From assembly GCA_965112155.1 (NCBI GenBank), contig OZ218109.1: a stretch of DNA of 64,000 bases; one strand, written 5' to 3'. Shown one piece after another: positions 53,480-64,000 of this stretch. The DNA comes from Podarcis liolepis (Eukaryota). The notes beneath the pieces were generated by a model. It saw only the letters and a list, made by a program, of their open reading frames with translations, made no database searches and was not told the DNA's origin. Every line of letters starts with the position of its first letter. Positions within the stretch are counted from its first letter, which is position 1. The position numbers and the translations under genes are program-made.

Positions 53480-55460
53480 CAAAAAAGCGCACGTTGCCCA
53501 TACTCTTTTAAGCTCACGTCGAAGTGTTTTGATACTGCTCCGAATCTTTCCTTTCCTGCCTACTTTCACTACTAAGGGCGGAGGAAGGAAGGAAGGGCAG
53601 GCATTCACACAGGATGAGGAAGTAACGACTAGGGCGACACACGCAACTTACTCGTTCACACACAAGCATAGCCCCCCCCTCCAAAAGCACATGCCCGGCC
53701 GCCCCCAGCATCTTTGGAGGGGGGGTCCACCCATCTCCCTTTAACTAAAAAGGGCCCGCCTCCTTGAGTTTTAAGCATCCACGAACACAGCCAGCAACAG
53801 AGTTAACAGGAGGCAGGGGGAAGGGGGGAAGGCGACCCACTCCTGCAAGCAAGGAGGGGAAAGACGTGGATGGCGCACTCCATAAAGTGGTGACTTGTGA
53901 CGCGTGTGTGAGAGACAGAAAAGAGACATACGGGGGAGGAAAAAGAGACGCCTCCGAAAGCAGCCCCCCGGCCCTCTCTCTCTCTCTTTACCCCCCACCC
54001 CACCCCACCACCTCCCAAGAGAGGTTGGCCGAAGCAGGCCCGTCTCACTCACCTTGATGCACTGCGACATTGCAGCCATGCCCGTCGCAGTAAACCAGCG
54101 GATTCTCGGCCCAGCCCCTCTCGTCGGAGCAAACGCAGCAGCCGCCGATCATCTCCTTCATACTATTGGAGAACTCACCCTCCAGTGACACAGGCAGCAA
54201 CAACGGCTCGCTAGAGACCATCTAAGGGTTAAAAACACCGTCAGCACGACACCCCCCGGCACCGGAGAGACCCCGGCCGCCGCCGCCGCCGCCTCAGTTC
54301 TTGCCCCGCAGCACTCCGCCTTCAGTCGCTCAGCCACCGCCGCCGCCAGTACCGCCTCCATAGCAGGGACGTGGGACCCATGGCCGCTGGTGGCAGCGGC
54401 GGCGGCGGCGGCAGCAGCAGCAACAGCAACAGCCGAGCGGCGGATAAGGGGCTCCTTCCAAGTTCCTCGCTGGGCGCCGGCTCGGCCGGGCAGGTACCCA
54501 GTCCGTCTTGGGAGATCTCCAGCAAGGAATTAAGGGTTTGCTGGCAGCGGCAACAGTCCTGCGAGCCGCACGGACTGGGGGGGGGCGGAGGGAGAGAGAG
54601 AGAGACAGCAACGCGAAAAAGGCAACAGAAGCAGGGGCCTGCTGCACGCAGGCGCACTGCAACGCCTCCTCGGCGAAGGCCCCGCGACGCGGCAGCGGCA
54701 GCAGCCTTCGCTCTCTCGCTTTTCCTCCTCCTTTTCCCCCGCGGTGGCTCATGGGCCGACAGCGGAACACGAGCTCGCTGGGCGAAGTTCTGCGTCGCGC
54801 GCTGCCCTGCTGGCTCTCAACCGTTTTGTGTTGTTTTTTTGAGCGGGTGCCCAGTCAGAGCGTGCGCGTGACGGGGGCGGTAGAGGTGGGGGGGTGTCCC
54901 CTGAGGCGGAGGGCCAAGTGACAAATATATACACTCCCGCTGCCGGGCTCCTCCTGCCTTAAGGGACTCGTGCTCGCTCTTGTGCGTGTGTGTGTGGTGC
55001 TAGTGCCAGACTAGGCCCGGCCCGAGCCGTGCGCCTCCTCTCTTACACGTGTTAACTTATCATTACAACGATGGCATCACACACTCTTCTGCTCCCGAGG
55101 GATCCCAAGCGCCGCGCGCGCGTTTTTCGTCAGTCTCTATTTCCCGCAGGCCGCTGTGACACCTTGAGGAGCAGCGGGATTTATACTTTCCCGCTCCTCG
55201 CTCCGTCACACGCACCGCATCCTCTCTCGTGTGTTTACGAGGCCAGGCAGCTGAAACAGCTGGGCAGAGTCAAAAGCCTGAGTGAAACAAAAACGATTGC
55301 GATCACCTAGCCTGGCCCTAGAAATTTGATCAGTTTGGGATGGCGGGGGGGGGGTGCACGCACACATGCGACCTGCATTTCTTCTGCAACAGGCTCTTCT
55401 TTTGCATTTCAAGGGATGTTGAATTCCGTTTCTCTGTTCTTGGCTGATGCGGCGGGATTC
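53480..55460. promoter_or_regulatory. CpG island: promoter and 5' leader of MLLT10
   Basis: Abrupt switch to high GC and dense CpG around the first coding exon, with (GCC)n/(GGC)n runs, a GC box (ggggcgg at about 54873) and an NRF1-like cgcaggcgca (about 54647). The exact TSS and the non-coding exon 1 boundaries cannot be fixed from sequence. Confidence 0.9.
54053..54221 (-). CDS. MLLT10: MLLT10/AF10 first coding exon (169 nt): MVSSEPLLLPVSLEGEFSNSMKEMIGGCCVCSDERGWAENPLVYCDGHGCNVAVHQ(A)
   Basis: Manual translation matches the AF10 N-terminus and PHD1 start (MKEMIGGCCVCSDERGWAENPLVYCDG). The ATG is directly preceded by an acceptor-like ttttaacccttag, whose TAG is in frame. Donor G|gtgagt at 54052. 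The MVSS extension and IGG distinguish it from the paralog MLLT6. Confidence 0.96.
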
Positions 55461-57256
55461 CTCTCCCACCCTGATGATCCCAAACTCCTGGAACAGGAAT
55501 TCCTTTCAGGGGCACTTCCTTCCTGCTTTAAGGGTCCCCAGCCTCAATTTCGGATTGCTAGCTAATCCTTCTTCCAAAATTCCCCCCCTTAACTTGTTTG
55601 AATGTGCTGCATTTCCAATATATATCGTGTCTATGAACAAAGGGCACCGTGGCATCTAAAAATACTATTTTATGGCGACAAACTTTCCCAAGTACTCACT
55701 GGAATTCTTTGTTTTTATAGAAACAGCGTCTTAATCTCTCTGTGTGCACATACATACTACTTAGTCAAACTCTATTACCCTAGTTGCTATAAAACGGGTA
55801 ATATAGCTATATCCCTTTGGAATTCGGTTTCTCTTGCATCACTTTAGGTGCAAGGGCAGAACTGATACATTTCCAATTTTCTGTTTGGCTAACCTAGAGA
55901 CCACTGCACAAATCCTGCAGAAATGCTCATGTTCTCCTTACCTTCATCCTGGCCTCGCCATATCTTTTAGTACCATGCATGCAGAGGTCTTTCTGCATGG
56001 CTGTTGTTAAAACTAGAATTGAGCAGAATAGACAACACAACCAGGGAAAAGACAGGCTGCCTTATCCCTTTAGAAATATGCACCCCCCCCAAACTTGGAT
56101 GTTTTTGTTATCTAGATTAATTTAAAAGGACATGTTTTCTAGATTTTGATCAATTATTGTTGGTTTGCTTTTATCTCTTTCAAAAAGCAGAGTAAAAAAC
56201 GAGATGGTTCAGGTTATCAGAATCCCAAGCTTTTCAATTATCCACTGTAAGCAGGTAGGACTGCAGCAGAAGGAACTAATTGTGGCTACTGTTAAGACTG
56301 AAAGGAGATTAAATGCAGCTTTGCAAAATTCTCCTCCTCCACTAGCCCCAGGGCTGCTACTTTTGTGAAGGAGAAGGTGAAGGGAAAGCCTTACAAGTAA
56401 AATACCATTGATTTTCCCCTATTATCATGCTAAAGTGACTTTATGCATAGACTGGTAAAATTGTATGATTTTGCAAGACTGCATTATCGCCTGACATGAA
56501 GACAATTTAAATCAAGTGTACAGTATTAAACTATCTGTATTGTCCTAAAAGTGTGTGTGTGTGTGTGTTTTAGAAGTTGTGAAATAAAGAACAGTTTAAC
56601 ACATCTGCAGATATGTGGGCTTGTGAAGAGCTGCTGCTTAAAGAGAGAAGAGATGTGCCAAACTATTGTCCTTTGGGATATCAGAGCCTGCAGTTTATGA
56701 GAGGGATATCTTGGGTCAGTTTTTGCTGTCCTTGAAAGTCTGAAGTGAAATTTTCTAGATAGAGGAGGAAGGACAGGGAAAGGGAGTGGTGAGTGTCATT
56801 TCCTACAGAAGGCATAGCTGAGCACTTCGATTAACATAACAGGGTCATTGGGGTGTTTGTGATCTGCCAAATATTCAGCTGTATGCTGCATGGCAATATC
56901 CCCCCAAAGTCCAGTTTCAGCATTTTGAGACAAAAACTTTTGACATACCATACAAAAATGCTTCACAAAGTGCCTGTATTTCCATGTGCCTGCTACAGCA
57001 AAGAAAAAAATATGTAGAATGGAGAGTGATATTTAAAATCCTAGAGCCCAAGTACAAAAACATGTATTGCCTTTCATTCACGTGTATTATCTTTCAGTCC
57101 TTCAAAGATATGGAAATTAGAAGTATATTGTGTAATTTATTAATTTCCTTATGTTCTGAAAGCTACATTATTATTTAAATAAAAGTATTTAAAGAATTAG
57201 ATTCCACTTTAATAACTGTGTTCCTATCATACCAAACTACTGTTTTAACTAATTCA

Positions 57257-57475: not shown

Positions 57476-59062
57476 AATTGAGTTGTGGATCTGAGTGAAG
57501 AGTATTTCAAAGCTATTTTTGCTTATTTCAGGAAAATGATATCTAAGTTCTAAAAAGTATTCCCAGTGATATTGTTAACCCCAGCATTAGAACTGTGGCC
57601 TAAATTGAACTCTAGTTTGTAGACAGTTTGTTGCTACCTTACAGACTAATTTAATTCTTGTTTCTTCATTGCCCTTTTCATTGGAAATTTACCATACACA
57701 TTATACGCCTTTTAATGGAGACCAAACAAAATGTTTTATTTAAACATAAATCATTCTTCATATTTATTCTTTTTTAATGGAGACCAAAAGAACTAAATAG
57801 ATACCAACCACTTCACTACAAAGTAGACCCAGAGTGACTGAAGCAGCATTATTCAACAAGTCAGTCTGCATCTACTAGGAACTATTGTGGGAGACTGAAT
57901 AAATACAGATAGGTGCACTGACAGATGGAGTTGGACTTTAAGGTAGCAAAGGGAGGGTGAATGTCAGGGATGCTGAGGACTTGGAACTTTCAAAATTAAG
58001 TAGCACCAAGGTTCTGTTGTTTAGCAAAGCATACAATGGACAAGAAACATAAGGGGTACAGTACTCTGGAAAAGTACATTGTAATAAAATTGCTGCCTAT
58101 GTTTCCTTCCAGTCTGTAAAAGCTTTGGACGTATTTTTTATTTTGAACACTATTAAACTTCATATAGTTCTACAGTTCATTTTTCACATTCAGTATCATT
58201 TAAAATTTGGCCCTTCCTAGAATGTAAAGCAATGTCAACTGAAAATCATGCTAAAAGAACTGCCCAAACTAAAATGTGTATGTTAGAAATGTATTTTGTA
58301 AAACCTTTGCATGCATTTTAAACAAATCTCTTTTTTTTAAGTATATATGCTGTATATTAACAGAATGATCAACATAAAACTTTGATTTTGGCACAAAACC
58401 CCCCAGGGTAAATTGTATTGCACTAATAATACATTAAACTTTATTTTAAATTGATTGTACTAACTTTAGTTTCATTTAAGGAATTGAAATATATAGACTG
58501 AAAGAGGGACTATGATGCTATTTTAAAACATTGCAGGGAACTTGATGACAAAATGTAGATAGCCTCTTGGTGGTTTTGTAAAACAATGCATTTGGAAAGA
58601 ACCATTGAAATGCAAAATAGGAAGAGAAAGGCTTTACGACAATGTACTACACACATAGTAAGCCATTAACATCCATATGATATGAATGTGGAAACCTTTT
58701 GCATCCTATTCCTAAGCACACTACTTGAGGCAAGTTTGAAATCAATGAGATTTACTTTCAAGTTACGGTTTTTAAGTTGGGGTGTTAGGGTGTGTTTTCA
58801 GGAATAGATGTAAAGGCTGATGATAGGGGGAAATGTTTTTGAATTCACAGCTTTTTCAGACCCAGAGATAGAAATATGCCTATTAGAAAAGGAAAACAGG
58901 CAAAGATTGAATTTTCAAAGATTGAAAAATTGGTGGTTTTTTAAAAGATACAATGTAGACAACAAATCAATCCACATATTTTAAAGGTACATGTAATTTT
59001 CTACTATTTTATAACTTTATTTGTTTTAAGCTGCAATCCTATGCACACTTACCTGGGAGTAG

Positions 59063-59239
59063 GTCAAAATAAAAAAATTCCTTCCAGTAGCACCTTAAAG
59101 ACCAACTAAGTTAGTTCTTGGTATGAGCTTTCGTGTGCATGCACACTACCAAGAACTAACTTAGTTGGTCTTTAAGGTGCTACTGGAAGGAATTTTTTTA
59201 TTTTGACTATGGCAGACCAACACGGCTACCTATCTGTAA
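59063..59239 (+). mobile_element. Penelope-like element terminal (pLTR) remnant with an inverted 5' segment and partial hammerhead core, nested in the palindromic repeat at 59030-59282
   Basis: Perfect 61-bp inverted arms (59063-59123 / 59147-59207). The loop carries gtgtgcatgcacac-gaaa-gctc on the minus strand. 3' extension cagaccaacacggctacc. Flanking 12-bp direct repeat ctgggagtaggt at 59053-59064 and 59240-59251. Confidence 0.8.
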
Positions 59240-61353
59240 CTGGGAGTAGGTGGCATTGAACTCCATTGGATGTACTTCTAGGGCTTCACGTTATTTGCTA
59301 TTATTTTCAATGGGAAAGACTTTTAAATGTTAGGGGTGGAAAGTAACGTACAAAAATGTTTTCAGCACTTTTAACGTCCTGTATCACCTAAATATTTAAA
59401 AATATTTTAAAAACAAGTAGCATCAACCTAAAATTCCAATTTCCTGAAATGCCCTTTATGTTTTGCATGTGGCAATAATTCTAAACATGGATTCAGTAAC
59501 ACATCCTGGGCTTGTTGACCAAAAGAGCCTGTATTACTTAATCACCTCTTTGTCACAATTAAATCAGGTGTAATTTTCTTATTACTCAATAAGAACGAGC
59601 ATGTGAGGTAAAACAGATATATAAAACCAAAACCAAAAAAAATCTCTTCAAACCCAAACATGTCTTTTTCATCCTATGTTGAAAACAATTAGGAGGGAAG
59701 GAGGGATAAATGGAGGAGGAATAGAAGAGTTGTGTCAGGGCTGTTTGTTTTTGAGGAGTGAGGTTAGGAATAGATGCTTGCCTAAAGCCCTTAAGAACAT
59801 GTTAAGATTTTAAAACTGAATCTTTGTCCAAACTTAAATTTTATACTTTACCCAAGCACAAAAAGCTATAATATTCATAAAATAATGTGCCTTTTAAAAG
59901 TTCTGAGAAAAAACTTAATAGACATTAAGTATCTTATTTGTGTTTATTTTTTTAAAAGCACACTTTCTTTACCTTCTTTGCTTGCTGAACTTGAATATAG
60001 CATTAATTTAAATGTTAATGATGCTATTTGTTTAATCCTAGGAAATGAAAGCATAATGGCCAGTCCAGTGTGGAGTGCGACACTTGTGATTTGACCCATA
60101 CACACTACTGCTATACAGTATTTAAAACTATAAGCTATAGTGGTCTGAATTCAGCAAATTATTTGCCCTTGCTCAGTTATGAAGAGCATAACATTTTGTC
60201 CATTTTTTTTACTCCCTGTGTTAATCCTGTTGTGTTCAGTACTTCAGTCCTAAAATCTACTTTCCAATTGGTTTAAACAGAACTTACTTTAAACAAAATG
60301 TGCTTGTAGAGTTTCTGAGTAAAGCTACACCAGTAAAAACATATATATTTTTATTTTGTGTGTGTGTGTGCATGTACACATAACCGCAGGAATATTTTGC
60401 AGCAATACAAATACCAGCTTATATGCAGTTCACCTTTCATCTGCATTTTTTAATGTATTTACACATTTTCCAATTTGTACATACAAGTTTTAAAGTCAGT
60501 TGTGTGCTGACCAAACTACCTATTAATGTAAGTATAACTTTGACTGTTAAAACTGTGATGGCATTGTTTGAATCTTTCTCAGAATCTAGCCAGTAAAACC
60601 ACTAATTTAACTGGGAAGTTGTTTTTAAAGCATCCATTATATTGTTTTAAATTGCACTATCACCTCAGGAGGCTTTGGGCAAATGCCACTTAACTAGGAG
60701 CACCAGTGGATGAAATAGTTGTTTTCCAAGTATTGCTTCCATTATGATAATGCTAGCATTTAATTGTTAATTTCAGCCTGAGATGTACTGTAAACATGAT
60801 GCAAAAGAGTGTTTTTTACATAAAACCCCTAGATTAAATATTCTAAGTAAATATTACAGCACAGGAATTTTTTTTAGCATGGTGGGTAAACATACCTTCA
60901 GTTTGAGAGGCCCAAGGTTTACATTTAAGAGCTAATTTATAAAGTTATTCATTGGAATATAGTTAAGTGCTACTTTCAGTTTATATACAAATATAATTTA
61001 TTATTAAAGGTTTTTTGAAAATTCACATTTAATATAATAATGCTGTACTAATCAGGGGAAAAGATAGTAAACTCTGAAGTTTAGATTTAATGTAATTTAA
61101 ATGTAATGCACTGATTTTCTCTGCAGTATCTCAATAAAGATTTGGAATTTTGCTGTAAATGGTTTGTTTTTGGCAGTAGGGATATTTGAAAATAGTCTTC
61201 CCCCTCATCCACACACACACCAAAAAGCACAAAAAACATTAAATATGAGCCTATATTTGAATAGAAATCAAAAGTTTATACTGGTTCATATTTTTGTCAG
61301 TACTCCAAGGTTGCATTTCCCCTTTTTATTCATGCTTGTTCTTCTATTAGAAA

Positions 61354-61395
61354 ACATCTTTAATTCCCTATCATACATCTTTAATTCCCTATCAT
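61354..61395. repeat. 21-bp perfect tandem duplication (acatctttaattccctatcat)x2
   Basis: Seen directly. Confidence 0.9.
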
Positions 61396-63439: not shown

Positions 63440-64000
63440 GGAAGCTGAACCCAAAAAGCTGCTCAAGCAGAAGCTCGTCCCTTTTTCCTTCACAGCTGCG
63501 GCGAGAAAACAAGGGGAGCCTTCGCGCGAAGAAGGGCGGCAGCGGTGGCTTCCCTACGAGCAATGGGGGGAAAGGAGCCGCGGCTCCCCTTCCTCTCCCC
63601 TCACGGAGGCCGGCCTACCCCGCTCGCTGCTGCCCCGGCCCGCCTGCTGCAACCGAGCACCTTCCCTCCAACTGCACTTCCTGCCTGAATGAGGCCTCAG
63701 CTCCCCGGCGGCAGCTGCTACCGCCTTTCGCAGCTTCCCCTCCCGCCGCCGCCGGCAGCCCCTTTCCTTCCCCCCCCCTCCGCCCCCCAGATCTCGTCAG
63801 GCGGCCTCCCAGCTCCCCCTGCGCTCTCTCGGCGTCCCTCTCGGCTTCTTTCGTGGGGCCCAGCCCCTTCTGCTCCTGTGGCTACAGGCAAGCAGGCCGG
63901 CCGGCCGGCCTGTAGTTAGTAGGCCCGGCTGCGAGCCTGGCTGGGCTTCTTCTTCCCTCAGGAGGAGCAGCTCCTTCTCTGAGCCCTCCTGCCAGCCAGG
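63440..64000. promoter_or_regulatory. Second CpG island (runs off the window), probably the promoter/5' end of the divergent neighbour SKIDA1
   Basis: The GC/CpG-rich block is seen directly. The gene identity is inferred only from the known head-to-head SKIDA1-MLLT10 arrangement in vertebrates. No SKIDA1 coding sequence is visible here. Confidence 0.65.

Follow-up and report, generated by a model that had tools for sequence, protein, structure and literature searches.

Within a 64,000-nucleotide stretch of Podarcis liolepis DNA (hereafter the window), positions 59063-59123 and 59147-59207 are exact reverse complements of 61 bp each, with zero mismatches and a 23-nt spacer between them. RNA folding of the hairpin yields -104.8 kcal/mol (z -21), and none of 200 shuffled sequences is equally stable. 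A cruciform or a double-stranded RNA could possibly form from this hairpin, as from those of many copies of its family. A 12-bp direct repeat (59053-59064 and 59240-59251, plus strand) flanks the structure and leaves an insert proper of 175 bp (59065-59239). Element positions are numbered relative to the predicted cleavage site of a hammerhead motif in the spacer. The base immediately 3' of the cut is numbered 0, which makes 59124 position 0 of the minus arm and 59147 position +1 of the plus arm.

The two arms are unequal in extent. An inverted arm on the minus strand (59063-59147, 85 nt) carries element positions +61 to -23, and a sense arm on the plus strand (59147-59240) carries +1 to +94. 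Both are 100% identical to another copy of the element, L125. The plus arm begins 1 nt 3' of the predicted cut and extends 33 nt beyond the inverted part (59208-59240), forming a one-sided tail that had been overlooked in an earlier reading of the DNA letters (the sequence-only reading). This tail is also present in the full-length copies L231 and L212, and it carries the first ATG of the element's long reading frame (59209-59211) plus subsequent codons. Base 59147 fits either arm, giving the inner joint a microhomology of 1 nt. At the outer edges, the final 2 nt of the left duplication are common to the inverted arm, and the initial 4 nt of the right duplication match the element, a microhomology located at the likely priming site.

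The insertion splits an older dispersed, imperfectly palindromic repeat, whose left and right parts (59022-59052 and 59252-59279) were recognized from homologues and contig ends. In two other records a homologue continues uninterrupted across the site of insertion, matching at 80% over 55 nt in one and at 74% over 61 nt in the other, and loose contig ends at 59061-59065 run on into the same repeat. The perfect arms and their spacer, the flanking 12-bp repeat, the divided palindrome and the start of the plus arm 1 nt past the predicted cut had all been described in the sequence-only reading, and each is borne out. The same is true of its placement of the insertion between two CpG islands, as CpG-rich blocks occupy 54001-55500 and 63501-64000.

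The nearest coding exon found (54048-54221, minus strand) matches solved AF10 structures (E 3e-26). By this match it represents the initial coding exon of an orthologue of AF10 (MLLT10); it lies within the CpG-rich block at 54001-55500, and has the insertion ∼4.8 kb upstream of it. No sign of function, or of a tie to AF10 regulation, was found at the locus. For the second CpG-rich block, no open reading frame of at least 150 aa in the next 10 kb (L301) named a gene. An exact 21-bp tandem duplication is present at 61354-61395.

The insertion carries half of a minimal hammerhead motif

On the minus strand, comparison with intact copies identifies the spacer (59124-59146) as half of a minimal hammerhead ribozyme. 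Stem II (59146-59133), the GAAA sequence, a short palindromic stem III and the UC are retained, and the predicted cut falls between 59125 and 59124. The motif lacks the CUGANGA core that would precede stem II on its 5' side, as well as the 5' strand of stem I. An Rfam scan of the locus produced no match to a hammerhead model. The half motif is predicted to be catalytically dead, as had been proposed from the loss of CUGANGA; the missing box is present in intact relatives, where it had been expected upstream in longer copies.

These intact relatives share their organization with the minimal hammerheads of metazoan Penelope-like elements (PMC4209133). Both have CUGANGA, one extra base before a long stem II, GAAA, a palindromic stem III and a 4-bp stem I, and the relatives are predicted to self-cleave after UC. 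In contrast, neither CUGANGA nor the 5' strand of stem I is present in the window copy, whose remaining half is predicted to be locked in the 61-bp duplex.

Several relatives (L107, L114, L097, L126 and L020) contain short re-copies of the hammerhead core, created by jumps back to stem II from a hot spot of arm ends that is described below. Such re-copies are a likely origin of paired tandem hammerheads. A recurring TA at the base of stem II (30 loci) was dropped as a candidate feature because the loci had been chosen by their likeness to the query.

The insertion is a stub of an abundant Penelope-like retrotransposon

A 36-mer that includes the tail (59205-59240) has 3,926 exact matches in the 1.57-Gb genome, whereas the reversed control has none. 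Longer copies extend upstream into a 3' UTR and the end of a GIY-YIG coding region. Full copies have a 926-codon open frame (L231) with matches to RVT_1 (E 1.4e-11) and GIY-YIG (E 2.2e-5), both above Pfam cut-offs, and L138 has an open reading frame product of 565 aa. In L212, L225 and L231 the arrangement is that of a partial tandem, in which the end of one open reading frame is followed by the 3' UTR, an intact hammerhead, the tail and the next open reading frame. The Penelope-like origin put forward in the sequence-only reading is therefore confirmed by a tail present in thousands of copies and by full copies that encode both reverse transcriptase (RT) and GIY-YIG domains, a link that had been singled out for checking. 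The locus is a dead head-to-head stub of this abundant young element and is ordinary in form.

The translations contain a C-x4-C-x2-C linker between the RT and the endonuclease, and CxxC between GIY and YIG. Neptune elements are defined by a CX2-5CxxC linker plus two cysteines between GIY and YIG, features that are shared with Nematis (PMC8557442). The element thus appears to be Neptune-type, with a linker motif that marks Neptune or Nematis.

Two separate family insertions lie less than 1 kb apart near 3.394 Mb (L045/L046, G000:C1). Elsewhere, an open frame adjoins a Penelope fragment (L142:2191-3162, minus strand); it resembles the RT of an LTR retrotransposon.

Relatives share the architecture of the window copy

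To define a sample of relatives, we used the first 100 of the 3,926 tail matches listed, all of which are on contig C1 and were selected for the tail rather than for the inner joint. An inverted arm is present in 66 of the 100. Counting microhomology in the lengths, the set of 63 duplications (62 relatives under a stricter rule plus the window copy) includes 57 of 12-18 nt and 60 of 8-18 nt, with a mode of 12 nt (23/63). Tail-less arms have outer ends at +48 to +65 in 61/66 cases, and tail arms end at +94 or beyond by selection. The joints show short overlaps or filler, as in end joining.

An inverted arm with a one-sided tail and a target duplication is an insertion form already published. 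The insertion units of endonuclease-positive Penelope-like elements (PMC8557442, PMC3846280) have the same head-to-head inverted pLTR piece, the same single-ended tail overlapping the start of the open reading frame (30-40 bp there, beside a 5'-truncated inverted copy), a short target duplication, and TATA and initiator-like motifs in the pLTR. The window copy differs from these units in having no open reading frame past the tail, and duplications are mostly 12-14 nt here compared to 8-10 in rotifer elements.

The sequence-only reading took the absence of mismatches between the arms to indicate a recent insertion. That inference is weak, since zero mismatches are seen in 22/52 loci and in 18/38 short-armed relatives, and the chance of such an outcome at the sample rate is 0.49. 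The young age itself stands and is likely, being better supported by the 100% identity to L125 and by a related sample (run X3) in which the site is likely empty. There, matching in one contig breaks off at 59052, 30 letters before its end, and a second contig begins at 59240; such breaks would fit an empty site in that organism.

Arm ends accumulate 36 nt upstream of the predicted cut

The inner ends of the arms are concentrated between -40 and -33, where 24/100 tail arms and 29/66 inverted arms end (53 together). This hot spot has its mode at -36 and a further peak at -34. A TATA-like box begins at -67 and an initiator-like A is located 30 nt downstream at -37, which places the mode one base inside this A. 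We take these two motifs to be promoter elements on the basis of consensus and spacing. Similarly, TATA and initiator-like motifs are found in rotifer pLTRs (PMC3846280), and the Drosophila virilis promoter is located in the pLTR (PMC2377424). The hot spot is likely to be the 5' end of the element RNA.

The fates of the arms that end at the hot spot agree with this interpretation. When 89 arms ending at -40 to -33 were pooled from differently selected loci, 50 were found to join filler or target DNA, 23 an antisense arm and 16 sense element sequence. All 16 sense rejoins occur downstream, at -23 to +159, and none occurs upstream, as expected if the template held nothing upstream of the hot spot. 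However, 30/100 tail arms extend past -70, which indicates that read-through RNAs were used as well. Four loci (L008, L073, L098 and L108) have ORF-start fragments (to +136 to +159) joined directly to -34 to -39, and these are head-to-tail template jumps.

Alternatively, the hot spot could mark not an RNA start but a splice acceptor or a pause at an RNA structure, with the remaining model unchanged. A pyrimidine tract and an AG ending at -36 make a plausible acceptor, there is a precedent in D. virilis, where the 3' limit of the intron coincides with the 5' edge of helix I (PMC4209133), and a small hairpin is predicted with its loop at -35 to -31, albeit weakly (frequency 0.05). Against splicing, no common upstream exon is evident, an upstream donor joins 0/89 hot-spot ends, and splicing would not terminate a cDNA. 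This alternative is a serious one that we nevertheless consider rather doubtful, and we retain the RNA start as the preferred reading.

Among the matches listed, no element holder is recorded as RNA. One bulk RNA run aligned to the window gave no pile-up of read starts and zero flank depth, and that run is subject to random fragmentation, multi-copy reads and an unsure species match. When the RNA extends further upstream, a weak prediction (ensemble frequency 0.05, z 0.3) has the CUGA box pairing with the five bases that precede the hot spot (L125:310-368, minus strand); an RNA starting at -37 would be without that pairing partner.

Ribozyme-cleaved RNA is at most a minor template

The start of the plus arm at +1 had been interpreted as the mark of a template cleaved by its own ribozyme. 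In this scenario, cleaved RNA was the template of the plus arm, the cDNA reached the cut end and ran off, and one base was lost on joining. The window arm, which starts at +1 or +2, fits the scenario, but the ends of its relatives do not. Among unselected ends, those within 3 nt of the cut number 2/100 for tail arms and 0/66 for inverted arms (2/166 together). Genome-wide, with patterns that required three mismatches immediately outside the end, we counted 71 ends at 0/+1, 1,454 at -36/-35 and 641 across the 25 positions from -5 to +19. After correction for this filter the counts are 79, 1,855 and 65 per position, respectively. Ends at 0/+1 are therefore ∼1.2 times local background and those at -36/-35 are ∼23-fold commoner than these, although both ratios are rough because the correction uses an assumed base composition and the anchors differ slightly. 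The genome-wide junction peak anticipated at the UC cleavage site is thus not clearly seen, and the meaning first given to the +1 start is not supported.

A finer count offers the cleaved template some encouragement. Scoring 99 of 100 matches listed for -5 to +19 revealed that position 0 is the top single position, with 12 ends (9 loci) compared to a mean of 4 (Poisson p 0.0008 before correction). However, three self-palindromic loci, each scored on both strands, supply half of these 12. The class of the window copy, +1, is not clearly raised: it has 6 ends, and other positions reach 7 or 8 (8 each at +6 and +17; 7 each at +11, +12 and +13). By eye, both arms meet at the cut in 11 loci, which would also be consistent with cleavage. 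Palindromic joints at the cut were nevertheless rejected as a cleavage signature because a control palindromic joint, at a 4-nt palindrome 5 nt upstream (-5), is equally common (22 matches, 12 loci).

The cleaved-RNA route is also unneeded for the window copy, because its other arm runs through the uncut site to -23. The break beside the predicted cut is likely due to chance, as such breaks pile up ∼36 bases further upstream. Ribozyme cleavage is likewise not needed for insertion in vitro (PMC11167929). We therefore regard a cleaved template as unlikely for this insertion, and a minor route of this kind in the family as possible. Within the abstracts and article passages covered, we found no published table of inner ends relative to the cut or to the start site. 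Further related literature includes bioRxiv 10.64898/2026.07.22.740005.

Two priming events probably account for the inverted form

The likeliest explanation for these insertions, and one that we hold with good though not full confidence, is that reverse transcription on uncut element RNA was primed from the two ends of a staggered cut in the target and that the two resulting short cDNAs were joined by microhomology. It builds on features observed directly, namely the family, the ORF link, the arm extents, the duplication, the microhomologies and the distribution of arm ends. One target end would prime at the end of the tail (+94) and the other near +61. Most such cDNAs would pass an intact hammerhead and reach about -36, the likely RNA 5' end, which would be set by the TATA-like box (-67) and the initiator-like site (-37). 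Those of the window copy would have stopped or been trimmed early, at +1 and -23, with +1 likely a chance position, before microhomology joined them at the inner joint.

Biochemical work on Poseidon of the green anole, PAc, provides a parallel (PMC11167929). In vitro, both target strands are cut and extended, and reverse transcription begins at a pair of internal sites flanking the tail. The outer ends described here, +94 and +48 to +65, match these two start sites, and hammerhead cleavage appears similarly dispensable in the two elements. The systems also differ. The present element carries the Neptune/Nematis C-x4-CxxC linker, and its first ATG follows the cut by 63 nt instead of lying at stem II. 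The data here are genomic rather than biochemical.

An inversion in the same family might instead arise by self-priming, with a cDNA folding back on itself and later repair shaping the joint. Self-priming on an antisense template has been proposed for rotifer Penelopes (PMC3846280), and it would accommodate two observations made here: the inner ends of paired arms are correlated (rho 0.39, p 0.001), with 13 loci in which both fall at the hot spot, and 11 variants that differ from the reference copy are common to both arms of one insertion. However, a fold-back copy cannot contain sequence that is missing from its template arm, and each arm of the window copy holds sequence missing from the other, the tail in one case and -23 to 0 in the other. 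Moreover, the tail-less arm is the one that reaches further 5' in 36/66 relatives (the tail arm in 13, with 17 equal). Since each arm has sequence absent from the other, two independent syntheses are indicated. The correlated ends and the shared variants suggest that both arms are likely from RNA of one source, and shared variants are expected on that basis as well. Self-priming is accordingly quite improbable.

Finally, a non-autonomous TIR DNA transposon or a microRNA-like hairpin gene, suggested by the long, perfect inverted repeat and by Rfam microRNA models that score the hairpin (best 62 bits), can be dismissed: every Rfam score is under its gathering cut-off (95 for the best model), arm lengths and inner joints vary in every copy with no fixed termini around a constant interior, and the ORF link, which shows this sequence to be one end of an element with RT and GIY-YIG, refutes it.

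Implications for Penelope-like elements

As a dead stub, the locus itself is of little weight. The family-wide junction map, in contrast, bears on two questions raised in the literature covered, which are the role of the Penelope hammerhead and the origin of head-to-head inversions. The map indicates that cleaved RNA is a minor template at most, and it leads to a sharp prediction of the RNA start site.

A broader interpretation, on which we are evenly divided, is that the thousands of such stubs constitute a genomic record of Penelope "strong-stop" cDNAs. Both nicks would prime in the start of the open reading frame, and RT would pass the uncut hammerhead to a capped 5' end 36-37 nt above the cut and then jump. 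What remains useful from this work is the hot spot, sharply placed at -36 throughout the family, together with the interpretation by double priming; the hot spot is a modest and testable by-product. If the strong-stop interpretation is true, the ribozyme would be uncut on the template in vivo, and the head-to-head form of Penelope insertions would be explained.
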